From an uncultured Gammaproteobacteria bacterium (GTDB lineage Bacteria > Patescibacteriota > Microgenomatia > Daviesbacterales > UBA10151): 64,000 bases of DNA. The notes under the pieces are model-generated. The model did not search any database, was not told the origin of the DNA, and saw only the letters and a list, made by a program, of their open reading frames with translations. The stretch covers positions 3,634 to 67,633 of the forward strand of contig CAZCNP010000006.1 in NCBI GenBank assembly GCA_964500725.1, given 5' to 3'. Position numbers and translations under genes: made by a program. Shown here piece after piece: positions 430 to 54,248 of this stretch (its first letter is position 1; the number at the start of each line of letters is the position of its first letter).

Positions 430-1788
430 TCAAGTTTTTTGAGAAAGCCTAATATCAACCCTTTCCATATCTCTTGGGAAAAGACTAGCCTCTCTCACAT
501 TAGAAAGATTCAGAACATGCATCGTCACTCGCTCCAGTCCAAAAGAGAATCCTCCTTCTGGGGGCATACCAAATTCAAAAGCCTGAAGATACATTTTAAA
601 ACTATCAGTATTCATTCCCCTACTTTTAATACTAGCGACAAGCTGCTGATAATCATTAATTCTCTGACTACCACTTAAAATTTCCAAACCCCTGAATAAT
701 AAATCATAACTTAGACTATATTCTGGATTTTGGGGATCTGGCATGGTGTAAAAAGGTTTTGCTGCAGTAGGAAAATGGGTAATAGTAACAAAATCACTAT
801 TATGCTTATTTCTGGACCATTTACATAAATCAATTTCATCCTGTGGGGTTAAATCTTTTTCCTTTCTATTATCGCGCCCAAATTCTTTATAGATAACCTC
901 TTGAGCTTCTCTTAAACTCAGTCTTGGAATTTTTCCTGAAAGCACTTTTTCAACACTAAATTCAGTTAGAGTATCTTCACATTCTTCCTCAGCCACTTTT
1001 AACATTTTAACTGCCACCCCTTCTAGTATATCTAACAAGTCTGTAAATTTAATAAAGCCCACTTCAATATCCATCTGAGTGCTTTCTGTTAAGTGTCTTG
1101 TAGTGACTGAGGGTTCTGCCCTGTAAGCTTTAGCTATTGTAAAAACTCTTTCAAATACTGGTATAAGCATTTGTTTATACAGTTGCGGACTCTGAGACAA
1201 ATAAGCTTTATGTTCAAAGTAATCTACCTTAAAAACTTCCGCTCCACCCTCAGTTGCTCCTGCCACTATTGTCGGCACAACAATCTCCGTACAACCTAAT
1301 TCATAGGCTGCTTGTCTAAATCCGGCAAGCAAACTTGATTGGACTTTAAAAATAGCCTTTACCTTAGGATGGCGCAAAGTAAGCGAGCGATAATCAAGAA
1401 GTGTAGGTAATTGCAAATCTAACTCTTTTGCTCCCATATCAAAAGGCAATTCTGCTGCCTCAGATAATACCTCAATATTTTCTGCAGAAATTTCAATCTC
1501 ACCTGTAGGAATATTCTTATTGACCAAATGCTCGGGTCTTTTATTAACTTTACCAGTTATACAAACTACATCTTGAGGGTGCAAATCCGGAGCTATTTCC
1601 TTGGTAGCTACTACCTGTATTACAGCTGACCTATCAGATACATCCAAAAATAAAATTTTCCCATGATCCCTTCGCACTTGTACCCATCCGTAAATATTAA
1701 CCTGCTCGCCAACTTTTTTATTACAATCTAAAATTAAGGTTCTATCCATATCCTCTGCATCATAACAGGAGCGTGTATAAATTGACAA
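430..1788 (-). CDS. aspS: aspartate--tRNA ligase, archaeal/eukaryal-type class II
   Basis: LSQSPQLYKQML, motif 2 FRAE...TRHLTE and motif 3 GGFSFGLERV fit AspRS rather than AsnRS. Track start is TTG at 1788; in-frame ATG at 1749 (MDRTLILD) is the more likely start. Confidence 0.8.
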   Translation of the reverse strand: MSIYTRSCYDAEDMDRTLILDCNKKVGEQVNIYGWVQVRRDHGKILFLDVSDRSAVIQVVATKEIAPDLHPQDVVCITGKVNKRPEHLVNKNIPTGEIEISAENIEVLSEAAELPFDMGAKELDLQLPTLLDYRSLTLRHPKVKAIFKVQSSLLAGFRQAAYELGCTEIVVPTIVAGATEGGAEVFKVDYFEHKAYLSQSPQLYKQMLIPVFERVFTIAKAYRAEPSVTTRHLTESTQMDIEVGFIKFTDLLDILEGVAVKMLKVAEEECEDTLTEFSVEKVLSGKIPRLSLREAQEVIYKEFGRDNRKEKDLTPQDEIDLCKWSRNKHNSDFVTITHFPTAAKPFYTMPDPQNPEYSLSYDLLFRGLEILSGSQRINDYQQLVASIKSRGMNTDSFKMYLQAFEFGMPPEGGFSFGLERVTMHVLNLSNVREASLFPRDMERVDIRLSQKT

Positions 1789-2520: not shown

Positions 2521-4359
2521 ATGGAAAACTTGGAGAAAATTGCAAAACTTATCAGGTATTTTATTTTAGTTTCTACCACTGAGGCAGGCTCGGGGCATGT
2601 TACATCATCTTTATCTGCAACAGATCTAATGACTGTTTTGTTATTTGATGGATTTTTTAAATTTGATGTAAAAAACCCTCAAAATCCAAATAACGATAGG
2701 TTAATCTTTTCCAAAGGCCATGCCTCCCCTCTTTTCTATTCTCTCTTTGCTGCAGCTGGAGCAATTACTGAAACAGAACTTAAAACATTAAGAAAATTTG
2801 GCAGTAGGTTAGAAGGACATCCTACTATGCTGTTTCCCTTTACCGAAGCTCCTACTGGCTCTTTAGGTCAAGGTTTATCTATTGGATTAGGCATGGCACT
2901 TTCTGCAAAATATCTAGATAAATTGCCTTTTAAAACTTATGTTTTGTTAGGAGATTCCGAGATGGCAGAAGGCTCTGTCTGGGAAGCAATTCAACTAGCT
3001 GCACATTACCAATTAGATAATTTAATTGGAATTTTGGACGTTAACCGTTTAGGCCAACGAGGGCAAACAATGTATGGTCACAATATTAAAGATTATGAAA
3101 AAAGAATTGCTGCATTCGGGTGGCAGACAATAGCAATCGACGGGCACTCGCTAAAAGAAATCCGAGGAGCTTTTAAAAAAGCTCAAGGTATGAAAGGTGT
3201 TCCAATAATGATTATTGCCAAAACTTTAAAAGGCAAAGGTATTTCGTTTTTAGAAGACAAGGATGACTGGCATGGCAAAGCTTTAAAACCTGAAGAGCTA
3301 GAAAAGGCGCTAGCAGAATTAGGTCCTATTGATAAAAAGCTTACAGGAAAAATAACCATGCCCCCTAAATTTAAAGATCAGAAATTAAAAGCTAAAGTTT
3401 CAACCCAAGATTCAAAAACGAACTACCAACTAGGAGAAAACATTGCTACTAGAAAAGCTTATGGAAATGCCTTAGTTAGAATTTATCCTCAATTTCCTAA
3501 CCTGGTTGTGTTGGATGCAGAAGTCTCGAACTCTACTTTTGCAGATATATTTAAAAAAGCTTACCCGGAGAGATTTTTTGAAATGTATATTGCAGAACAA
3601 AACATGGTCGGCACGGCTTTGGGTCTAGCAAGACAAGATAAGATTCCTTTTGTTTCAACCTTTGCTGCTTTTTTTAGCAGGGCTTTTGATCAGATTCGGA
3701 TGAGTCAATACGCAGATACTAATATTAAGTTTATTGGCTCTCATGCTGGAGTATCAATTGGTGAAGATGGCGCTTCTCAGATGGGTTTGGAAGATATTGC
3801 TATATTTAGAAGCCTATTAAATAGTGTTATTTTATACCCTTCAGATGCTGTTTCCACTGAAAAATTACTTACTGAAGCTGCCAAACACAAAGGAAATGTT
3901 TATATTCGCACTACCAGAAAAGACACTCCAATTTTATATCCAAATAACGAACAATTTCCAATTGGCGGGAGCAAGATTTTAAAAAGTAGTAATAAAGATC
4001 TTGTAACTGTAATTGGAGCAGGCATAACTCTACATGAAGCTTTAGCTGCATATGAACAACTAGCTAAAGAAAATATCTTAATTAGAGTAATTGATCTTTA
4101 CAGCATCAAACCTTTAGATATTAAAACTTTAGTAAAGGCATCACAAGAAACACAAGCAATTATTACCGTTGAGGATCACTTCGAGCAAGGAGGCATAGGT
4201 GAAGCTGTTTCTTCTACTCTTTCTGGTCATAAGACAAAAGTGTATTCCTTGGCAGTTAGAAAAATGCCAAGAAGTGGAAAACCAGCTGAGCTTTTGGAAT
4301 ATGAAGAAATATCTGCAAGTGCAATTATACAAAAAGTAAAAGAAATTATTGCATTTTAA
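2521..4359 (+). CDS. tkt: transketolase
   Basis: 612 aa with GHxxSxxS TPP-binding N-terminal motif (SGHVTSSLSATDLM), GDSEMAEG, and pyrimidine-binding and C-terminal domains. Confidence 0.9.
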   Translation: MENLEKIAKLIRYFILVSTTEAGSGHVTSSLSATDLMTVLLFDGFFKFDVKNPQNPNNDRLIFSKGHASPLFYSLFAAAGAITETELKTLRKFGSRLEGHPTMLFPFTEAPTGSLGQGLSIGLGMALSAKYLDKLPFKTYVLLGDSEMAEGSVWEAIQLAAHYQLDNLIGILDVNRLGQRGQTMYGHNIKDYEKRIAAFGWQTIAIDGHSLKEIRGAFKKAQGMKGVPIMIIAKTLKGKGISFLEDKDDWHGKALKPEELEKALAELGPIDKKLTGKITMPPKFKDQKLKAKVSTQDSKTNYQLGENIATRKAYGNALVRIYPQFPNLVVLDAEVSNSTFADIFKKAYPERFFEMYIAEQNMVGTALGLARQDKIPFVSTFAAFFSRAFDQIRMSQYADTNIKFIGSHAGVSIGEDGASQMGLEDIAIFRSLLNSVILYPSDAVSTEKLLTEAAKHKGNVYIRTTRKDTPILYPNNEQFPIGGSKILKSSNKDLVTVIGAGITLHEALAAYEQLAKENILIRVIDLYSIKPLDIKTLVKASQETQAIITVEDHFEQGGIGEAVSSTLSGHKTKVYSLAVRKMPRSGKPAELLEYEEISASAIIQKVKEIIAF

Positions 4360-4535: not shown

Positions 4536-5357
4536 ATGTACAAAGTTGAAAGAATAGAAAGAAGCGATATAATAAGGCCAGACGAGTTTGCTGTTGCCGG
4601 TGGCCCATGTGCAATAGAAACAGAAAAACAAGCTTTCGCTGTTGCACAGTCTCTTTACGAGATGGAGATACGGATATACAGAGGACAATTATGGAAACCC
4701 CGATCAAGCAGAGATAGTTTTCAAGGCATAGGGCTTGCAGGAATACCATGGTTGAATAGAATTAAAAGAGATTTCGGTATGGTTATTGCTACAGAGATTG
4801 TAGATAAAGACCAGATAAAACCAACCATTGATGTTGTAGACATACCATGGATTGGATCAAGAAATATGCAGAATTTCGAGTTATTAAAGGCTATAGCTGA
4901 TGATGGAACAAACCGACCTGTAATATTAAAAAGAGGCGCATCTGCAACAATTAAAGAGTGGTTACAATCCGCAGATTATATAGGCAGAGAAAGAGTTATA
5001 CTGTGTGAACGTGGAGTAAGAACTTCTACAGACTCAACAAGATACACTCTAGATTTAAATGGGGCTCTGGTGGCAAAACATGATCACGGAATGCCTGTAA
5101 TAGGCGACCCTTCTCATCCGGCCGGCCGTCGTGATTTAGTTTTACCCCTTGCTCGTGCCATTGTAGCCGCTGGGCTGGATGGAATGGTAGTAGAAATACA
5201 TACCAATCCCGAACAAGCCTTATCTGACAAAGATCAACAAATTACTCCTGAGACTTTTCGTGAAATGTTAAGACAAACACGAGCAATATATAAAGTGTTA
5301 AATCCCCCGGTTTTAAATGGCCATCATACTAGACTTTTATCACCTGCATTAGCATAA
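4536..5357 (+). CDS. 3-deoxy-7-phosphoheptulonate (DAHP) synthase, class I-beta type (KDO8P synthase cannot be fully excluded)
   Basis: 273 aa, KPRSS...FQGIGL and GDPSH motifs of the I-beta DAHPS/KDO8PS fold. Adjacency to pheA favours DAHP synthase. Confidence 0.7.
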   Translation: MYKVERIERSDIIRPDEFAVAGGPCAIETEKQAFAVAQSLYEMEIRIYRGQLWKPRSSRDSFQGIGLAGIPWLNRIKRDFGMVIATEIVDKDQIKPTIDVVDIPWIGSRNMQNFELLKAIADDGTNRPVILKRGASATIKEWLQSADYIGRERVILCERGVRTSTDSTRYTLDLNGALVAKHDHGMPVIGDPSHPAGRRDLVLPLARAIVAAGLDGMVVEIHTNPEQALSDKDQQITPETFREMLRQTRAIYKVLNPPVLNGHHTRLLSPALA

Positions 5358-5507: not shown

Positions 5508-6443
5508 ATGATTAATGAAACAGAGTTAAAAATTAATGATCATCCAATAGTAGTAAAACTTGCTCAAGACAGAACAAAACCTAGAGTAGCTTGTTTAGGA
5601 CCAGCAGGTACTTACACAGAAGCAGCCAGATATGAATTATTAAAAGATCATCTGGATAGGATGGATCAAGAATTTCTCCCTGCCAATGCTAAAGTAGTCC
5701 AACAAGTAGAAGCAGGTGATTTTGATATTGGTATTGTTCCTGTTGAGAATGCCATTGAAGGAGACGTTGTTGAAGTCTTAAGAGAACTAAACCATACCAA
5801 AGAAACTACTATATTGGGAGAAACGATTTTAGGCATCGATCATATGCTAATCGGTCAACCAGGATCTAACACAGAAGAAATCCGTTCTCATCCTCAAGCA
5901 TTAGCTCAATGCAGAAGTTTTCTTTTAGAGAATTATCCTCAAGCAAAACAAGAACCATCGCTTAGCACCACAGCTGCTGTTGAGTATGCTTTACAACATC
6001 CAAGCACGACAGCAATTGCTGGCAGAAGAGCAGCTATAGTTTATAACCTGCCTATTTTGGCGGAAAATATTGGGGATGTTAAAGGTAATTCCACCCGCTT
6101 TTTAATATTGGGCAGAGGCGAAACTGAGCCCACAGGTCAAGATAGCACCGCTTTAATCTTCGTTCCGAGAGGAGACCGCCCAGGCATTTTAGCCAGATGC
6201 TTAACTGCCCTTGCTTCTTATGGAATTAATTTAACCAAATTAGACTCCCGCCCTACTGGAGTAATGAGAGAATATGCATTTTGGATTACTTTAGATGGTC
6301 ATATCAAAGATGAAATGGTCAGGCGAGGAATAGATGATTTAAGAGATACCTATTGTTCGTCATTAAGGGTACTTGGTTCTTATAGGAAAGCAGAACTACC
6401 ACAAGGGGCGAAAGACCCCGGAGCTATCAATAATAGTGGATAA
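5508..6443 (+). CDS. pheA: prephenate dehydratase (PDT catalytic domain plus ACT domain)
   Basis: 311 aa with PDT domain, C-terminal ACT domain and the TKLDSRP motif. Confidence 0.85.
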   Translation: MINETELKINDHPIVVKLAQDRTKPRVACLGPAGTYTEAARYELLKDHLDRMDQEFLPANAKVVQQVEAGDFDIGIVPVENAIEGDVVEVLRELNHTKETTILGETILGIDHMLIGQPGSNTEEIRSHPQALAQCRSFLLENYPQAKQEPSLSTTAAVEYALQHPSTTAIAGRRAAIVYNLPILAENIGDVKGNSTRFLILGRGETEPTGQDSTALIFVPRGDRPGILARCLTALASYGINLTKLDSRPTGVMREYAFWITLDGHIKDEMVRRGIDDLRDTYCSSLRVLGSYRKAELPQGAKDPGAINNSG

Positions 6444-7476: not shown

Positions 7477-7734
7477 ATGGTTGAAGCCATAAATGGAAAA
7501 AATCACCAACCTAATATGGAAAGAGTAAGCGAGGGGTTATTTGATGTAATTAGCGGCGGGGTAAGAGTTGCCCTAGAGTTAGGCCTTCTAACAACGGAAG
7601 GGCCTTACAGACCACAAGAAATGACTACAGCATTAGTTAGAAGAATGAGTGGCCAGAATATTGATGGTTTAGAAAGACAACTTCTAGATATTCAAAGAGT
7701 AATGTCTGTTCTTAGGCAAGTTTTAGATCCTTAA
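7477..7734 (+). CDS. hypothetical protein (85 aa)
   Basis: AGGAGGT RBS then ATG 7477. Third gene of the small operon. Confidence 0.5.
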   Translation: MVEAINGKNHQPNMERVSEGLFDVISGGVRVALELGLLTTEGPYRPQEMTTALVRRMSGQNIDGLERQLLDIQRVMSVLRQVLDP

Positions 7735-9289
7735 CCTTTAGTTGTAAGGTATTATTACCATTGTAGGTATCGAATTCTAAATTAAAAGCTAGGTCTACTG
7801 GTTGGCCAGATTTTAGTGTGGTAATTAAATCTCCCATACTAAAAGCAATAAAATTTATATCATCTGCTTTACCTTTTAGGTGTTTTCCATTTCCTACGGT
7901 CCTCGAATCTGCTATATGCATATTCTTGATTACAAAAACAGGTCTTTTATTGCCAAAGCCGAAGGGCTCAAGTTTAGCTAAATCAGAAACTAATTTTTTT
8001 GTAAGACTTTTGCTATCAACCTCAGCATCAATTTCTAAAACTCTCTCCTCTACTGGTAAATCAATTACAACCTTTTCCAACCTTTGTTTAAATACCTCTA
8101 TATGCTCTCTTAAAATAGAAAACCCTGCTGCTCCAGGATGACCTCCCACATCTATTAAAATATCAGAATGAGTCCTAATCATTTCAACAATATTTACTCC
8201 ATCAACCGAACGGGCAGAACCTTTACAGACTTCTTTTCCAAGAGAAATAGCAATTGCTGGACGGGAATATTCTTCGCAAACCTTTCCTGCAATCAAACCA
8301 ATTATTCCTGATGACCATTCTTTACTGGCTAAGACGTGAATCTTCTTTTCAGTATCAATAAATGTTTTTGCTTGCTCATAAGCTTCTGTTGTCATTTTTT
8401 GGCGGGTAGTATTAGTCTCACTTAGAAGCTGCGCCAATCTCTTTGCTTTGAATGGGTCTTTTGTGCAAAGCAGTCTTAAGGAATCTATCGCATGCTCCAA
8501 CCTCCCCATGGCATTTAACCTAGGTCCTATTATGTAACCTATTTCAAAAGAACCTATATCTCCAACTTTTACTCCTGCCTGATTAAGAAGCGCCAACAAT
8601 CCCAAATTAGCAGTTTTATTTAAAACCTTTAAACCCTCATATACAAATGCCCTACCTAAACCTACCAAAGGAATTAAATCGCAAACTGTAGCAATTGCCA
8701 CAAACTGCAAAAACTCCTCTTGCAGATCTTTTTTAATTAAATCCTTTATCAAACACCAAGCAACTCCAGCACCACACATTTTAGTTGAATGAACTATTGT
8801 AAAAGCTTCAGGCTTTTCTTTTTCTGGAATATGATGATCAGTGATGATTAAATCAATTTGCAAACTCTTGGCATATTTTGCGCTCTCAAAAGCCACAATG
8901 CCATTATCTACAGTAATTAAAACTGTGGCTCCATTATTTTTGGCAAAATCTATACCTATATTTGATAGCCCATACCCTTCTTTTTCTCTATGAGGAATAT
9001 ACGGCAGTACTTTTGCCCCAATTGATGTTATTCCTTTATACAAGATTGCAGAAGCACAAATTCCATCAGCATCATAATCTCCAAAAATTACAATAAGCTC
9101 TTCTTTTTGTATTGCCTTTAATATTCTTTTATGCGCTTGTTCAAGATTAGGAATCTGTAATTCCTCAGTATAATCCGAAATCCTTGGATAGAAAAATCTT
9201 TCCTGATCCTTCTTTGTTATTATTCCACGATTAATTAATAGCTGTTTTATTAAATCATCATTTTTCTTCGGTACTACTTTCCATTTCAT
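7712..9289 (-). CDS. recJ: single-stranded-DNA-specific exonuclease RecJ (DHH/DHHA1)
   Basis: DHH motifs (VIFGDYDADG, ITDHH) and DHHA1 GGHPGAAGFS. Confidence 0.85.
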   Translation of the reverse strand: MKWKVVPKKNDDLIKQLLINRGIITKKDQERFFYPRISDYTEELQIPNLEQAHKRILKAIQKEELIVIFGDYDADGICASAILYKGITSIGAKVLPYIPHREKEGYGLSNIGIDFAKNNGATVLITVDNGIVAFESAKYAKSLQIDLIITDHHIPEKEKPEAFTIVHSTKMCGAGVAWCLIKDLIKKDLQEEFLQFVAIATVCDLIPLVGLGRAFVYEGLKVLNKTANLGLLALLNQAGVKVGDIGSFEIGYIIGPRLNAMGRLEHAIDSLRLLCTKDPFKAKRLAQLLSETNTTRQKMTTEAYEQAKTFIDTEKKIHVLASKEWSSGIIGLIAGKVCEEYSRPAIAISLGKEVCKGSARSVDGVNIVEMIRTHSDILIDVGGHPGAAGFSILREHIEVFKQRLEKVVIDLPVEERVLEIDAEVDSKSLTKKLVSDLAKLEPFGFGNKRPVFVIKNMHIADSRTVGNGKHLKGKADDINFIAFSMGDLITTLKSGQPVDLAFNLEFDTYNGNNTLQLKVKDLKLA

Positions 9290-11943: not shown

Positions 11944-12812
11944 GCTTGTGATTTTACCTTTACTGGTCCCAAAGGAATTTTATCCTCTGGGTCGTCAATA
12001 AAAAAATATAATACTGCTCCTTTTCTAGGACCCTCCGCAAGTCCTAATATATCCATTACTTCTGGTGACCCTCCTAAATGTTTTCCTGTCCAATCAGTAG
12101 GTCCTGCATCACCAACAACAGCCACAACAGCCTGACCAGTCTTTGGATTTACCACGAGCATTTTTCGAAATTTATAGAAATCTCGAAACTTATTAAAATT
12201 TTCTGCAAATCCAGGAGATAAGAACGTTTGCACAGCTAAATAATAGCGTTCTTTAAGTTTGTCTTTTTCGCTAAAAGTCTCTTTTGTTGGGGCAAAATAA
12301 CCCCAAGCGCCCAAACCAGAGGCAATACCAGCATCAGAATATTTGGCAAAATCTGAAGTCGTATCAGCATGAGCATATAAATTATCACCCGGGTATCTGT
12401 ATAAATGCTGTTCACCTCCAATTAAACCATAATTCCTATTAAGTCTTATACCCCTTATTTCTGCTTCTACCTTAAAACCAAAATTACTAGATAACATATC
12501 AACAATTTCCTTTTCTTCTAATAAATTAAGAGGCCTTACTTCCTTAGGTAATTCATCCGATAAAGCTTGAGCCAGCAGTATATTTTGGTCATAGCCTTTT
12601 AAAGCATCATCACGGCTGACAAGCAAATTTGGAGCTGGCAACTGCTTAGGAACTGACAAAGAGAGCAAAACTAGTCCTCCCAAAGAACCAAGGGCCATCT
12701 GTTTCAAAGAATTCCCATGCTTTTCCCAAAACTTATTTTGGGAAGAGCTATAACGTTGTGCCCATTTCTTGCTTAAATATTCGTAATGCGGGTTTTTGCT
12801 GGTAAATTGCAT
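11940..12812 (-). CDS. RlpA-like double-psi beta-barrel (DPBB/3D-like) domain protein, secreted/membrane-anchored
   Basis: N-terminal hydrophobic segment. C-terminus VVNPKTGQAVVAVVGDAGPT...GGSPEVMDILGL resembles the RlpA/expansin DPBB signature V.V.DRGP...iDLS...LG. Confidence 0.4.
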   Translation of the reverse strand: MQFTSKNPHYEYLSKKWAQRYSSSQNKFWEKHGNSLKQMALGSLGGLVLLSLSVPKQLPAPNLLVSRDDALKGYDQNILLAQALSDELPKEVRPLNLLEEKEIVDMLSSNFGFKVEAEIRGIRLNRNYGLIGGEQHLYRYPGDNLYAHADTTSDFAKYSDAGIASGLGAWGYFAPTKETFSEKDKLKERYYLAVQTFLSPGFAENFNKFRDFYKFRKMLVVNPKTGQAVVAVVGDAGPTDWTGKHLGGSPEVMDILGLAEGPRKGAVLYFFIDDPEDKIPLGPVKVKSQA

Positions 12813-17791: not shown

Positions 17792-18068
17792 GGGTGCCTA
17801 GGAAGTTAGTAAGCCAGATTCTGTTTCTCGATGATCATTTATCTAACGCTCCTTACTTCAACAAATGGGCAAGCAGCCCTGTTGGTTCTAGGATTGCAGC
17901 GGGGAGGATTGCCACGTTTCACCCGAGCATGACCCCGGTTCGTCACTGTTGCTCTAACTAGGCCTTACGGCTTCCAGCTTATGCTGGACACCCTGCTCTA
18001 TGCTGTCTGGACTTTCCTCTTAAGTAGTTTAAAGCTTCTTAAGCGATCATCCTTCTTCCTAGGCAGGT
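17792..18068 (-). ncRNA. rnpB: RNase P RNA (bacterial type-A-like, compact, about 277 nt)
   Basis: Minus strand GAGGAAAGUCCAGACAGCAUAGAGCAGGGUGUCCAGC (CR-I) ... GGGUGAAACGUGG ... ACAGAAUCUGGCUUACUAAC (CR-V). P1 is GCCUAGGAAG/CUUCCUAGGC. Confidence 0.85.
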
Positions 18069-30377: not shown

Positions 30378-30566
30378 ATATTAAAGATACCAAATATTTC
30401 CCAAAGGTCAATACCCCAAAATTATCCTGTTTGGATGTATGGATACATGTCGGGGATGGGAGAATTAAACTCCCGATTCCGCACCCCCAGCGCGGCGTGT
30501 TGTCACTATACTAATCCCCGTAGCTGCCTAGTATTTTATCACTGCTGCTTATATAATTCCATTTAT

Positions 30567-49069: not shown

Positions 49070-49303
49070 ATGGAAAAGAGTAACAGACAAACTGTCAAAT
49101 CCTCAATGCTTCGAGCAGGTAAAAGAACTTTCTTTTTTGATGTAAAGGTAGCCTCAAATAGTAAGAAGTATCTAAAAATTACTGAATCAAGCTTTGAAGG
49201 AGAAGGTAAAGAGAGAAGATATAATTCTTTCTTGCTTTGGCCAGAAAATTTAACTGATTTTCAACAAAGATTAACAGAAGTCAGTAGTGTTCTGGTTAAG
49301 TAA
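49070..49303 (+). CDS. DUF3276-like (PUR-alpha-like) small nucleic-acid-binding protein
   Basis: RAGKRTFFFDVK...KYLKITES...ERRYNSFLLWPE. Inserted on the opposite strand between rpsJ and rplC. Confidence 0.55.
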   Translation: MEKSNRQTVKSSMLRAGKRTFFFDVKVASNSKKYLKITESSFEGEGKERRYNSFLLWPENLTDFQQRLTEVSSVLVK

Positions 49304-49775: not shown

Positions 49776-50960
49776 TTAAGCAATAATTTTAGTTATTACT
49801 CCAGCTCCAACAGTTTTACCACCTTCTCTGACAGCAAAACGAAGGCCTTCTTCCATAGCAACTGGGGTTATAAGTTTTCCTTTAACATTAACTGTGTCTC
49901 CTGGCATAGCCATTTCAACCCCTTCAGGAAGCTGGACTTCACCAGTCACATCTGTAGTTCTAACATAAAACTGTGGTCTGTAACCTTTGAAAAATGGGGT
50001 ATGTCTTCCACCTTCTTCTTTTGAAAGAACATAAACTTCAGCTTCAAATTCAGAGTGAGGTGTAATTGAACCTGGTTTGGCCAAAACCTGCCCCCTTTCA
50101 ACATCAGTCTTTTCAATACCTCGAAGCAATATTCCAGCGTTATCTCCAGCTTGGCCTTCATCCAACATTTTGTGGAACATCTCAATTCCAGTTACCACAC
50201 TTTTCTTTGTAGGTCTAATTCCAACAATTTCTATTTCTTCATTAACTTTTACTCTTCCTCTTTCAATCCTTCCAGTAACAACTGTTCCCCTGCCTTTAAT
50301 AGAGAAAACATCCTCAACAGCCATCAAAAAAGGCTTATCCACATCTCTTACTGGAGTTGGAATCCATTCATCAACTTTGTTCATTAACTCTTCAACAGCC
50401 TTTACTGCCTCTGCATCACCTTCTAAAGCTTTTTTAGCAGAACCTCTAATTATTGGGGAATTTGGATCATATTCATATTTTTTAAGCAAATCTCTTACTT
50501 CTTCTTCAACCAAATCCAGAAGTTCTGGATCATCAACCATATCAACTTTATTGAGGAATACTACAATTGCTGGGACTCCTACCTGACGGGCTAAAAGTAA
50601 ATGCTCTCTGGTTTGAGGCATTGGTCCATCTGGAGCAGAAACAACCAAAATTGCTCCATCAGTTTGAGCAGCACCAGTAATCATGTTTTTGATGTAATCT
50701 GCATGACCAGGCATATCTATATGAGCATAGTGTCTTTTTTCAGTTTCGTATTCTTGGTGAGAAATATTGATTGTAATACCGCGGGCTTTTTCCTCAGGAG
50801 CATTATCAATCTGATCAACTGATCTTTTTTCTGCAAGCCCTTTAGCAGCCAATACATTAGTAATTGCTGCAGTTAAGGTTGTCTTACCATGGTCAACATG
50901 ACCCATGGTTCCAACATTAACATGTGGTTTACTTCTATCAAATTTTTTCTGATCTGCCAT
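49776..50960 (-). CDS. tuf: elongation factor Tu
   Basis: [15 protein letters not shown]-type motifs; 394 aa. Confidence 0.97.
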
Positions 50961-51048
50961 ATTTTTACCTCTAAAATCCAGCTAGCTCAGCTGGAACATT
51001 TATAATGTACCGTATTTGCAAAATAAATGCAATAGTTAAATTTTGATG

Positions 51049-51300
51049 TTATTTGTAAACTCCTTGTCTATGCTCAACTTCAACTACTGTTAAAATATTC
51101 TCCTTTGTAGAAAAAATATAAATTACTCTGTAAGGCCAAGCATAAAGTTTGTATTGTCCTGCAAATTCACCCTTCAATTTTTCTCCAGCAAGCGGGTTAC
51201 TGGCTAATTTTTCAATAGCTTTGGCGATTTTCTTTTTAGCAGCTACTGGCAATTTTAAAAAAGACTTCTCAGCTGTCTTGGTAAAAATTACTTGCACCAT
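51049..51300 (-). CDS. type II toxin, RelE/ParE/YoeB family
   Basis: 83 aa. Overlaps the upstream antitoxin gene by 1 nt and has a RelE-like C-terminal pattern (..YRVIY....ILTVVEVEHR). Confidence 0.65.
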   Translation of the reverse strand: MVQVIFTKTAEKSFLKLPVAAKKKIAKAIEKLASNPLAGEKLKGEFAGQYKLYAWPYRVIYIFSTKENILTVVEVEHRQGVYK

Positions 51301-51563
51301 TAGAGACCCGCTTTTTTCTTAACCTCTTCCCAGGATACTACTCTGCCTTTTTTAATATCTTCGAGTCCCTTTTTAATCCCCATCACTAGTTTTTTATCAG
51401 ACATCACTTCCATGGTAGCCTCCCAGGAAGCAAGCTCTTCAGCGCTTATCAAAACAGCTTTTGTCTCACCTTTATTGGTAATAGCAATCTTTTTGCCACT
51501 GGAGGCCTCTTCAAGTAAATCATACAATGTATTTCGTGCGGTTGTTGCAGAAACTGTAATCAT
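51300..51563 (-). CDS. type II antitoxin, Phd/YefM family
   Basis: 87 aa. MITVSATTARNTLYDLLEEA...KAVLISAEELASWEATMEV is a typical YefM/Phd N-terminus. Confidence 0.7.
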   Translation of the reverse strand: MITVSATTARNTLYDLLEEASSGKKIAITNKGETKAVLISAEELASWEATMEVMSDKKLVMGIKKGLEDIKKGRVVSWEEVKKKAGL

Positions 51564-51617
51564 AAATTAACTGTACGCTTTTACGTACGTCTTGTCAAGA
51601 AGTAAATTTAAAATGAA

Positions 51618-53756
51618 TTAATGCTCAACTCTACCAGTAAAGCCTGAAGTTTCAATAATCTTTTGAGTAATATTTGAAGGCACTGGTTCATAGTGGTCTG
51701 CTTCCATATAATAGGTAGCTCTTCCTTGAGACATAGACCTTATAGCTGTTGCATATCCATGCATTTCTGCCAAAGGCACTAAAGCCATAACTACCCTGGC
51801 ATTACCTCTTGTTTCAGAAGATAAAATTTGAGCCCTTTTTGAAGACAGATCACCAATTATTTCTCCCAAAAATTCCTCAGGGGTGGTTACTTCCACCTTC
51901 ATAATAGGTTCAAGTAAAATCATATCTGCTTTTTTAGCTGCCTCAGACAAACCTAAAGAAGCAGCAATCTTAAAGGCTATCTCAGAGGAATCAACATCAT
52001 GGAATGAACCATCATAAACAGTAACTTTAATATCTGTTACAGGGTAGCCTGCCAAAATACCTGTATCTTCTTTTTCAATAACACCCTTTTCAATAGGAGG
52101 AATAAATTCCCTGGGAATAGCTCCACCCACAATTGCTGAGACAAATTCCCTGCCCTGTCCACGGGGCAGAGGTTCAATCTTGAGTAAACAATGGCCATAT
52201 TGACCACGTCCACCAGTTTGTCTTATGTATTTACCCTCACCTTCTGCAAATTTGGTAATAGTTTCTTTATAAGCAACTTGAGGCTGACCCACATTTGCCT
52301 CCAGCTTGAATTCTCTTTTCATTCTGTCAACCAGAATTTCAAGCTGTAGCTCGCCCATTCCAGCAATAATAGTTTGGCCAGTTTCAGCATCTGATTTAAC
52401 CCTAAAGGTTGGATCTTCTTCAGCTAGTCTTTGCAAGGCAAATCCTAATTTTTCCTGGTCAGATTTTGTTTTTGGCTCAATTGCCAAGGAAATAACTGGA
52501 TCAGGGAAGGAAATAGATTCTAAAATAATTGGAGCTGACTCGTCACACAAAGTATTACCCGTAATCGTGTCTTTTAATCCTACTGCTGCCACAATTTCTC
52601 CCGCGAAAGCCTCATCAATTTCCTCTCTATCATTAGCATGCATTAAAAGAAGTCTTCCGACTCTTTCGTTGACTTGCTTGGTAGAGTTATAAACGTAAGA
52701 ACCGCTCTTTAATGTTCCTGAATAAACTCTTATATAGGTCAACTTACCTACATGAGGGTCAACTTGAATTTTAAATGCCAAAGCAGCTAAAGGAGCGGCA
52801 GGATCACCCTTTCTTTCTTCTGACCCGCCTGTTTTTGGATTTATTCCACTTGTAAGATACACATCCTGAGGGGAAGGTAAATATTCAACAACAGCATCAA
52901 GCATCGGTTGAACACCTTTGTTCCGCAGAGAAGATCCAGCAAAAACTGGTACAATTTTGTTGGCAATAACAGCCTTTCTTAAGGCTTCTTTGAGCTCTGT
53001 AACTGTAATCTCTTCTCCGTTTAAATACTTTTCCATCAACACATCATTAGATCCTGCAATCTCTTCTACTAGTTTCTCGCGAGCAGCCTTAACCTCATCT
53101 GCCATCTCAACAGGAATTTCCACTTCATTAAACTTAGCGCCTGTTTGATCACCCTCCCAAATCAATGCTTTTTGAGTTAATAAATCTACTATGCCTTTAA
53201 AATCATTTTCTTTGCCTATCGGAAGATTGTAGGCTATAGCATTTGCTCCTAACCTGTCTCTCGCCGATTGAATAGTAGCTTGGAAATCAGCTCCTACTAC
53301 ATCCATTTTGTTAGAAAAGGCAATCAAAGGAACCTTATATTTATTAGCCTGTCTCCAAACTGTTTCTGTTTGAGACTGAACACCAGACGAAGAATCCAAA
53401 ACAATTACAGCTCCATCTAAAACCCTTAGAGACCTTTCTACTTCAGCTGTAAAATCAACGTGGCCTGGGGTATCAATTAAGTTAATTCTAATTTCATTAC
53501 CTTCAAAAAGTCCTCTTTTGACTGTCCAAAAAGCAGTGATAGCTGCAGAAACAATAGTAATTCCTCTTTCTCTTTCCTGCTCCATCCAGTCAGTAACTGT
53601 GGTTCCTTCGTCAATATTTCCAATTTTATAAGTTCTACCGGTGTAAAATAGAATTCTTTCTGTTGTGGTAGTTTTCCCAGCATCAATATGGGCAATAATC
53701 CCAATATTTCTAATTCTATCAAGCGGGAAGTCCCTTTTAGTCTTTTGTATAGCCAT
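51618..53756 (-). CDS. fusA: elongation factor G
   Basis: AHIDAGKTT and five-domain EF-G; 712 aa. Confidence 0.97.
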
Positions 53757-53983
53757 TATTTTCCTCCCTTTTCTAAATCTCTAATTATCTTTTTTATCTC
53801 TTCAATCCTAACTCTAGCAGTCTCTGCATCCTCTATGGCCATAGTATAGGCTGCATTTTCAGAAAGATCCCCTTCTTGGGCTGCCTGACCTTTTTTAAGG
53901 TAAATTGCCTCTAGATCACTCTCCAACTGCTTTAAGTTATCCTTCCACATTTTCAATTTTTCTTGTCTTAATTTGTCATCCAT
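53756..53983 (-). CDS. GreA N-terminal coiled-coil domain-only protein (about 75 aa)
   Basis: GDLSENAAY...[15 protein letters not shown] matches the GreA/GreB NTD signature. No FKBP-like CTD. Stop overlaps the fusA ATG (TAATG). Track start is TTG 54025; ATG 53983 sits just after a terminator hairpin. Confidence 0.55.
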
Positions 53984-53993
53984 ATTTTTTAAC

Positions 53994-54019
53994 AAAAAAC
54001 CTCCCTCAAACTTGGGAGG
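53994..54019 (-). terminator. intrinsic terminator-like hairpin between rpsG and the greA-N/fusA unit
   Basis: Minus strand CCUCCC-AAGUUUGA-GGGAGG followed by U6. Confidence 0.5.
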
Positions 54020-54044
54020 CCACAAGTAGATATTGTACTATGAA

Positions 54045-54248
54045 TTAGTCTACGTTTCCAGCAGCAATGGCTGCACGGTCACTTCTGACAATATCTGCAG
54101 GATTTAATACTCTAGCCAAAATTGCAGCTGAAATAGGATCCATACGCTCAAAAGCATCAAGCCTATCTACAATATCAGATCCATCAAGAATTCCCACCGC
54201 CGCTGCTAAATCTACTATTGGTCTTAAAACAGAATTTTCTACTGCCAT
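54045..54248 (-). CDS. hypothetical Ala-rich small protein (67 aa); weak support
   Basis: ORF only. No SD, but composition is protein-like. Located between rpsG and the terminator. Confidence 0.25.
   Translation of the reverse strand: MAVENSVLRPIVDLAAAVGILDGSDIVDRLDAFERMDPISAAILARVLNPADIVRSDRAAIAAGNVD

Follow-up and report, generated by a model that had tools for sequence, protein, structure and literature searches.

The genes of the elongation factors EF-G (fusA) and EF-Tu (tuf) are normally adjacent in the str operon. In the stretch of DNA analysed here, 64,000 nucleotides (nt) of contig CAZCNP010000006.1 (assembly GCA_964500725.1; hereafter the window), a small toxin-antitoxin (TA) pair is placed between them. 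The locus raises the question of how a pair with a toxin that would act on translation came to lie among translation genes, and of whether its expression is coupled to the transcription of the operon, as a preliminary description had suggested. The pair is probably a functional and self-contained type II TA cassette of about 0.55 kb from promoter to toxin stop, a mobile passenger outside the design of the operon.

The EF-G of the window is 100% identical to an NCBI EF-G of Candidatus Daviesbacteria. The genes on the minus strand follow the order rpoB, rpoC, rpsL, rpsG, a 67-amino-acid (aa) open reading frame (ORF), an 89-aa GreA_N protein, fusA, the 87-aa and 83-aa ORFs of the pair, tuf and rpsJ. 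Beyond rpsJ, a DUF3276 gene on the opposite strand is followed by rplC, rplD, rplW, rplB, rpsS and onward. The fusA-tuf gap measures 657 nt, whereas in loci across bacteria where tuf follows fusA it mostly spans 30-220 nt (many Patescibacteria have larger gaps), and an insertion between the two genes is therefore indicated. The preliminary description had also read the locus as an insertion, and the Daviesbacteria relative L172 (related loci are numbered with the letter L) carries the empty site, with a gap of 160 nt.

The pair and its control region

The antitoxin gene is located upstream of the toxin gene on the same strand, and this order is kept in all related loci. The two ORFs lie on the minus strand exactly where they had first been described and share base 51300, at which the antitoxin stop TAA and the toxin ATG combine into TAATG. 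This overlap of 1 nt suggests translational coupling of the toxin to the antitoxin. In the window copy, which is compact, 19 nt separate the fusA stop from the -35 box of the cassette and 16 nt separate the toxin stop from the -35 box of tuf.

Both family assignments made earlier hold against the Pfam models. The antitoxin matches PF02604 (PhdYeFM_antitox) over residues 1-58 with E=2e-13 and 50.3 bits, above the curated cut-off of 29.8, and NCBIfam TIGR01552 (phd_fam) with E=3e-12 and 45.6 bits (cut-off 20.8). Its best solved relative is Mycobacterium tuberculosis RelB1 (9g12_C, 9e-10), the partner of RelE1 in the 9g12 complex, followed by the YefM-like Rv3357, Phd and Rv2865. The N-terminal part is the DNA-binding domain and the C-terminal part presumably the toxin-binding region. 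The toxin matches PF05016 (ParE_toxin) with E=2.4e-10 and 41.3 bits (cut-off 23) and is also above the threshold of PF15781 (ParE-like_toxin). More than 100 cluster representatives are homologous to it, with identities of 41-100%, and the identical NCBI protein already bears the name 'type II toxin-antitoxin system RelE/ParE family toxin'.

A profile of the toxin family, built from 36 homologues, was searched against the PDB. All 8 matches at E<=0.01 are RelE-type chains, including M. tuberculosis Rv2866 (1.7e-10) and RelE1 (9g12) and the RelE proteins of Thermus thermophilus, Escherichia coli and Pyrococcus horikoshii, and no ParE chain is found among the sequence matches of this profile. Residues K51, R58 and R78 of the toxin align with the catalytic residues K54, R61 and R81 of E. 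coli RelE, and Y82 occupies the tyrosine position of Rv2866 and RelE1, equivalent to Y87 of E. coli RelE. An alignment of 33 sequences shows no variation at R58, R78 and Y82 and at least 90% conservation of K51; the C-terminal motif HRQGxYK is likewise present and conserved in the family. The AlphaFold model of the toxin (predicted local distance difference test, pLDDT, 86) has 41 PDB fold matches at E<=0.001, and those that were recognised are all toxins of the RelE/ParE superfamily (RelE, YoeB, ParE, HigB2 and YafQ). The six best are all RelE structures, with M. tuberculosis RelE1 and RelE2, T. thermophilus RelE and E. coli RelE at the top, and ParE structures are placed lower, at E of about 2e-4. 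The translation-targeting action first proposed for the toxin is thus supported, by profile matches and by the modelled fold, as of the RelE kind rather than the gyrase-poisoning ParE kind. We conclude that the pair consists of a YefM-fold antitoxin and a predicted RelE-type mRNA endonuclease, in the style of M. tuberculosis RelBE1 and RelBE2.

The comparison of the window with three related cassettes gave ratios of nonsynonymous to synonymous substitution rates (dN/dS) of 0-0.035 for the antitoxin, 0.09-0.13 for the toxin and 0.02-0.04 for tuf and fusA. In L001, a short contig, the antitoxin protein is identical to that of the window despite 29 synonymous differences. Both genes of the pair are under purifying selection.

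The cassette carries its own control region (Table 1). Its promoter agrees with the consensus at 10 of 12 positions and ranks second among the promoter-like sites of the 7.5 kb scanned. The -10 box ends just 6 nt (TAATTT) ahead of the antitoxin ATG, with no Shine-Dalgarno sequence, and the cassette mRNA would accordingly be leaderless or nearly so. Two hexamers, CGTACG and CGTACA, are placed between the -35 and -10 boxes, 12 bp from centre to centre, and overlap the -10 box. The CGTACG-N6-CGTACA motif occurs once in the 64-kb window (0 expected by chance). The operators of YefM and Phd are paired GTAC-core palindromes 12 bp apart, and the spacing and position of the window hexamers fall within the pattern drawn from them, GTAC-core palindromes 11-13 bp apart at the promoter (PMC1802561). 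The promoter-operator unit stands ahead of the antitoxin in 24 of 24 related loci inspected, with 6-9 nt from the -10 box to the ATG, and a pattern search recovered it once per locus, at the same position, in 34 loci. It is kept whatever gene precedes it (fusA, GAPDH, a DUF6259 protein or others), which speaks against coupling to the str operon.

The function of the cassette would be the standard one for Phd/YefM-RelE modules, and its likely steps follow from the protein families involved. The antitoxin dimer, alone or bound to the toxin, would occupy the two GTAC-core hexamers over the promoter and repress it. The transcript would start at or beside the antitoxin ATG. Then, the toxin would be translated by coupling through TAATG and kept inactive by the C-terminal region of the antitoxin. 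On loss of the labile antitoxin, the RelE-type toxin would enter the ribosomal A site, cut the mRNA and stop translation.

The fusA-tuf junction and gene-end copies in relatives

An unbiased synteny sample of Daviesbacteria was chosen through EF-G and comprises the window, L002 and L171-L174. The content of the fusA-tuf junction differs from one genome to the next. L172 (EF-G 93% identical to that of the window) is the empty-site relative mentioned above. L171 (96%) carries an HTH_17-PIN_3 pair and two ORFs of no known family, L173 (92%) a 96-aa ORF and GpsA, and L174 (92%) a GIY-YIG gene, a 62-aa ORF and DUF5615-DUF433. In L002 (79%) a histidine kinase and a DUF6259 protein precede a YefM-RelE pair 4 kb downstream of fusA, and tuf lies outside the locus seen. 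Thus, the closest relative found, L171, holds a different TA pair at the same site, and the YefM-RelE pair is present in two of the six genomes, window included. A pair fixed between fusA and tuf throughout the lineage with a housekeeping role is not what the sample contains. Among the loci found through the toxin, the pair directly follows fusA in L082-L087, L104, L111 and L114, and in L001 it lies just upstream of tuf. The cassettes of L115 and L116 are flanked by a fusA remnant, on contigs too short for neighbouring genes. The pair occurs beyond this genome but not throughout the lineage.

In the alignment of the window with L171 DNA (about 88% identity), homology ends 7 nt after the fusA stop (51611) and resumes 9 nt before the toxin stop. 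A 115-aa ORF located before tuf in L171 was considered as a decayed toxin and ruled out, as it bears no similarity. The varied contents among relatives identify the fusA-tuf junction as a hypervariable hotspot. The placement of the pair would then follow no regulatory design, with the fusA 3' end acting as an insertion hotspot in Candidatus Daviesbacteria and tuf retaining its own promoter and 5' stem-loop downstream of any insert. This placement is unusual across bacteria and recurrent in the Daviesbacteria lineage, and there is no evidence of its adaptation to regulate the operon.

Other junctions of the cluster also hold TA pairs. The two TA pairs of L171 (Table 1) illustrate that several str-cluster junctions collect them in the lineage. 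Distant members of the toxin family (46-51% identical) lie inside the str cluster of L166 and L118, whose EF-G is only 57% identical. The L166 pair is located 0.6 kb upstream of tuf and is followed by an MGMT-like DNA_binding_1 gene, and rpsL and rpsG flank the L118 pair. Both are without fusA remnants, and with few long loci available these placements could be due to chance.

The promoter of tuf is conserved as TTGCAT-17-TATATT in L001, L082, L087, L111, L114, L171, L172 and L173, nine Daviesbacteria-type loci together with the window. It matches the consensus at 8 of 12 positions and was unlisted in the consensus scan; its support is this conservation. A hairpin begins about 9 nt after the -10 box. 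Relatives share its CCAGC...GCTGG stem and T-run whether or not they have the cassette, and the loops vary. The whole promoter-hairpin element is also kept in L087, with the cassette 3.8 kb away, in L171 and L173, which have other cargo, and in L172, which has no insert. The hairpin follows a conserved tuf promoter and is shared by relatives that lack the pair, and it is therefore assigned to tuf as its own 5' element. The scan did not call it a terminator (the T-run has only 4 T), and the whole toxin-tuf spacer folds no better than shuffled sequence (z = -0.84), the local hairpin being supported by conservation only. Judging from its position, the hairpin marks the putative 5' end of the tuf transcript, and it might additionally terminate transcription arriving from the cassette. 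The preliminary description had counted the hairpin and U-tract as following the pair, with a fresh AGAGG ribosome-binding site for tuf behind them. The hairpin and U-tract are there, but they belong to the conserved tuf element and not to the cassette; AGAGG is present at 50968-50972 but is not conserved in relatives.

Near the cassette or tuf promoters of several Daviesbacteria loci (Table 1), a short sequence resembling GTTGTGACAGTTTTTACAACGATCGT recurs; it is perhaps a binding site or a small repeat element.

Directly upstream of tuf, other Patescibacteria (Uhrbacteria, Falkowbacteria, Magasanikbacteria, Minisyncoccales and others) encode a small acidic protein annotated as 'hypothetical', 69-188 aa long, in nine of nine loci sampled; it has its own promoter and no toxin partner. 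In six of the seven proteins scanned, PF02604 (Phd/YefM) gave the best Pfam match, with E-values of 1e-4 to 1e-2 that do not reach the threshold. At least 336 proteins belong to the family, and a precomputed PF02604 match is recorded for about one fifth of those listed. The comparison with the antitoxin family of the window gave an hhalign probability of 11%, and the fold search of a model with pLDDT 68 was not significant. The protein may be a domesticated orphan, an antitoxin-like regulator with a link to tuf; its homology to the antitoxin of the window is unproven.

A further feature of the related cassettes is a copy of the end of the preceding gene. In L001, L002, L082-L087, L104 and L114-L116, a 50-80-nt copy of the fusA 3' end, encoding the EF-G C-terminal peptide, begins 0-10 nt after the toxin stop. 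L111 is as compact as the window copy. L087 contains three cargo blocks, each followed by such a copy, and L174 contains one after its DUF433-DUF5615 block (Table 1). The copies in L087 and L174 still read as the EF-G C-terminal peptide. The cargo of L087 includes proteins of 484 and 170 aa without family; Pfam gave no match for these two, nor for the 127-aa protein of L087, the 136-aa protein of L002 and the 174-aa protein of L114. In the sister clade of the cassette tree, the pair lies behind GAPDH (gap) in several of L092-L095, L098, L099 and L101-L103, and a 70-80-nt copy of the gap 3' end begins 1-7 nt after the toxin stop. L106/L108 and L107 have only a truncated piece of the gap copy, in a different neighbourhood. 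No fusA 3' remnants above shuffled controls were detected in the enlarged fusA-tuf gaps of other Patescibacteria and of L166.

The copies diverge in the manner of coding sequence. Third codon positions account for 44 of the 59 differences between resident end and copy for fusA, for 30 of 48 for gap, and for 196 of 309 pairwise differences among copies. The copies are more alike (86%) than each is to its own resident end (83%). Within the same genome pair, the synonymous divergence (dS) of the cassette is 0.5-0.8, versus 1.67 for tuf. Two simpler accounts of the remnants were rejected. A translated extension of the toxin does not fit, as the frame of the fusA remnant relative to the toxin stop differs between loci. 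Neutrally decaying target-site duplications, as the sole explanation, do not fit the 75% of differences at third positions or the 86% versus 83% identity.

The cassette family would move by recombination, with the cassette and the gene-end copy as the moving unit. Tentatively, and with the odds still somewhat against it, these would be integrase-less TA mini-cassettes that carry the 50-80-nt copy of a housekeeping gene 3' end (fusA, or gap in the sister clade) as a built-in homology arm. A circle of cassette and arm would undergo a single crossover at the gene 3' end in a related genome, restoring the gene and leaving the second copy after the toxin stop. Subsequently, repeated cycles would build the cargo arrays between fusA and tuf. 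The arm would be refreshed from functional gene copies, which would explain why the remnants diverge like coding sequence, and the TA pair would punish its own loss by recombination between repeats. The window cassette would represent the compact form, whose distal repeat was lost or never present.

A cassette copy in L088 (toxin 72% identical) lies amid LAGLIDADG endonuclease genes and a 23S_rRNA_IVP protein, and no gene-end copy follows it (2344-2913, 8624-9106, 12396-12785). This copy may be near an intron-bearing rRNA operon.

Alternative explanations

Some results weigh against the reading of the pair as a functional, self-contained and mobile cassette. The pair is known here from the comparison of sequences, profiles and models, and its toxicity, neutralisation, DNA binding and transcription start are all deduced from these. 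PADLOC returned no defence-system match for the pair or the neighbouring cargo, and a defence role is unsupported. In the toxin alignment, K52 of E. coli RelE has no counterpart. The score of the toxin against NCBIfam TIGR02385 (RelE_StbE) is 22.8 bits, under the cut-off of 27.9; the toxin is therefore left out of the RelE/StbE subfamily and placed on the RelE-like branch of M. tuberculosis RelE1 and RelE2. A ParE-type gyrase poison, which would not target translation, could be read from this score, from the names of the best Pfam model and of PF15781, and from the ParE structures among the fold matches. Such a toxin is very improbable given the RelE-type nature of all 8 PDB sequence matches and of the six best fold matches, and given a HRQGxYK C-terminus whose invariant R78 and conserved Y82 align with RelE R81 and Y87. 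PF05016 itself spans the whole RelE/ParE superfamily, and ParE proteins are not known to have this C-terminal motif. Apart from the one subfamily cut-off, every defining feature of a Phd/YefM-RelE type II module that was tested is present in the pair. It is also improbable that the pair is wired into the str operon, co-transcribed with fusA and tuf, so that TA levels track the translation factors and feed back on translation. RelE toxins do act on translating ribosomes, and only 54 nt lie between the fusA stop and the antitoxin ATG. The window scan found no terminator between fusA and the cassette, and the fusA terminator hairpin of L172 is absent from the window; without an intervening terminator, fusA read-through, and hence some transcriptional coupling, may occur. 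On the other hand, the sigma-70-like promoter and YefM-type operator accompany the cassette in every context, GAPDH and unrelated upstream genes included, and the antitoxin ATG, which has no Shine-Dalgarno sequence, would be poorly translated from a long read-through transcript. Moreover, the pair is absent or replaced at the fusA-tuf site of close relatives, and tuf has its own promoter. The coupling to str-operon transcription that had been suggested is not supported, and there is no evidence that expression of the cassette depends on the operon.

The mobility of the cassette is argued from relatives only, since the fusA 3' end occurs only once in the window; inserts flanked by two direct repeats of the target-gene end are seen in L001, L002, L082-L087, L104, L114-L116 and L174. 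The genes that separate fusA from tuf in the window, L002, L082, L087, L114 and L171-L174 gave no match to a recombinase family, although several cargo genes are without family and could include a recombinase of a new kind. With no recombinase in view the insertion mechanism is unproven. We would prefer homologous single-crossover integration at the conserved gene end, and the main alternative would be a decayed integrase-borne island. In the latter, which is unlikely, the fusA and gap 3' copies are attachment-site scars and the TA pair is surviving cargo. Serial site-specific integration at tRNA genes classically yields tandem arrays with partial target-gene copies, and the three blocks of L087 and the one of L174, each followed by a partial copy of the target 3' end, resemble it. 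Casposons, moreover, are reported to occupy the 3' end of the EF-2 gene in archaea (PMC9939771). An island origin agrees poorly with the lack of any integrase or other recombinase family in the loci examined, and with the identical cassette boundary (repeat 0-10 nt past the toxin stop) at two unrelated targets, fusA and gap, between which no shared 3'-end motif was seen. The core of an attachment site is also expected to be conserved at the nucleotide level, whereas the remnants vary mostly at synonymous positions.

Surrounding features and known systems

Several small genes and RNAs accompany the pair in the window and its relatives. Every Daviesbacteria locus seen, the empty-site one among them, encodes a protein with only the GreA_N domain (73-89 aa) immediately ahead of fusA. 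Searches of Pfam, NCBIfam and PADLOC gave no match for the 67-aa ORF that separates rpsG from the GreA_N gene, and ORFs of 67-69 aa are called at the matching position in L171 and L173. The DUF3276 gene is found in the same place in L171 and L172; the rpsJ-rplC junction of relatives also holds a small Sigma70_r4 protein or a 1027-aa GDSL lipase. The RNase P RNA and one tRNA are the only Rfam matches in the whole window.

Table 1. Location of the features in the window and in the related loci (numbered with the letter L).
Feature	Location	Strand	Remarks
Antitoxin gene, Phd/YefM family	51300-51563	minus	87 aa
Toxin gene, RelE type of the RelE/ParE superfamily	51049-51300	minus	83 aa
Cassette promoter	51570-51598	minus	-35 TTGACA (51593-51598), 17-nt spacer, -10 TACAGT (51570-51575)
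Operator (putative)	51572-51589	minus	CGTACG (51584-51589) and CGTACA (51572-51577), 6 bp between
fusA	51618-53756	minus	EF-G, 712 aa, full set of EF-G domains (Pfam)
tuf	49776-50960	minus	EF-Tu, 394 aa, full domain set (Pfam); rpsJ next
tuf promoter	51004-51032	minus	-35 TTGCAT (51027-51032), 17-nt spacer, -10 TACATT (51004-51009)
Stem-loop UCCAGCUG-AGC-UAGCUGGA	50977-50995	minus	8-bp stem in minimum free energy and centroid structures; then UUUU (50973-50976)
GreA_N protein	53756-54025	minus	89 aa; only GreA/GreB N-terminal coiled-coil domain (PF03449, 1.3e-7); stop overlaps fusA start
67-aa ORF	54045-54248	minus	alanine-rich
DUF3276 protein	49070-49303	plus	77 aa (PF11680, 4.7e-11); between rpsJ and rplC
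RNase P RNA class A, bacterial	17794-18062	minus	125 bits; 269 nt of 367-position model
tRNA	30450-30520	minus	
fusA 3'-end copies	L087:3136-3189, 4775-4813, 6332-6408; L174:4095-4151		
gap 3'-end copies (examples)	L093:2162-2241, 2812-2890		
GTTGTGACAGTTTTTACAACGATCGT-like sequence	L001:60-100, L114:9060-9130, L082:3150-3180, L106 about 600-635		
TA pairs of L171	3825-4381, 7581-8260		3825-4381: Gp49 (HigB-like)/HTH_3, between rpsG and GreA_N gene; 7581-8260: HTH_17/PIN_3, between fusA and tuf
Distant toxin-family pairs	L166:7652-8246, L118:7682-8243		
GreA_N protein in relatives	L002:5255-5485, L082:455-685, L087:170-394, L171:4778-4999, L172:4777-5001		
tuf-upstream protein of other Patescibacteria	L008:8124-8432, L014:8081-8413, L018:3897-4319, L020:9923-10291, L025:10797-11075, L042:8108-8317, L073:4052-4456, L175:3501-3851, L178:3501-4067		

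The pair itself adds little, as one more YefM-RelE module already so named by NCBI, and the interest lies in the hotspot and in the repeat structure of the relatives. In small Patescibacteria genomes, about 1 Mb in size, variable cargo that consists largely of TA pairs interrupts the gene junctions of a str/S10 cluster supposed to be rigid, and each core gene block seems to have retained a promoter of its own. The fusA and gap 3' copies after the cassette provide testable evidence on how small cargo spreads between uncultured lineages with no recombinase in view. If the homology-arm model is true, this would be a simple, recombination-dependent gene flow that uses the most conserved genes as landing pads and TA pairs to stabilise the insert. 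The literature search returned no report of a TA pair between fusA and tuf, nor of cassettes with gene-end repeats.

Among characterised systems, M. tuberculosis RelBE1 (Rv1247c/Rv1246c, PDB 9G12) and RelBE2/RelFG (Rv2865/Rv2866, PDB 3G5O) likewise combine a YefM-fold antitoxin with a RelE-fold toxin. Their complexes hold the best or near-best solved relatives of both window proteins, and their toxins share the C-terminal HR...Y motif with that of the window, although the identity in structural alignment is only 24-30%. Unlike them, the window pair has a YefM-type GTAC operator, an apparently leaderless promoter and a setting as a presumed mobile cassette at the fusA 3' end in Patescibacteria. 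E. coli RelBE shares the toxin fold, and RelE K54, R61, R81 and Y87 have equivalents in the window toxin, which is shorter (83 versus 95 aa) and lacks that of K52. The E. coli RelB antitoxin is a ribbon-helix-helix protein and not a Phd/YefM one. E. coli YefM-YoeB and P1 Phd-Doc have, like the window pair, a Phd/YefM antitoxin and two GTAC-core hexamers with 6 bp between them, overlapping the promoter (PMC1802561). Their hexamers are TGTACA, in contrast to CGTACG and CGTACA in the operator predicted from the window sequence, and the window toxin falls on the RelE branch rather than with YoeB or Doc.

With regard to the cassette arrangement, Vibrio chromosomal superintegrons contain small promoter-bearing TA cassettes in arrays of variable cargo separated by repeats, and these cassettes are thought to stabilise the array. 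In the loci described here, the repeats are copies of host gene 3' ends and not attC sites, and no integron integrase was found in the loci examined. The casposons at the archaeal EF-2 gene show that the 3' end of EF-G/EF-2 genes can serve as an insertion target (PMC9939771). They are large elements encoding Cas1 and PolB, whereas the units considered here span 0.6-4 kb, with no recombinase in view and with coding-like repeats of 50-80 nt; by analogy, they offer a loose precedent for the fusA 3' end as a target.

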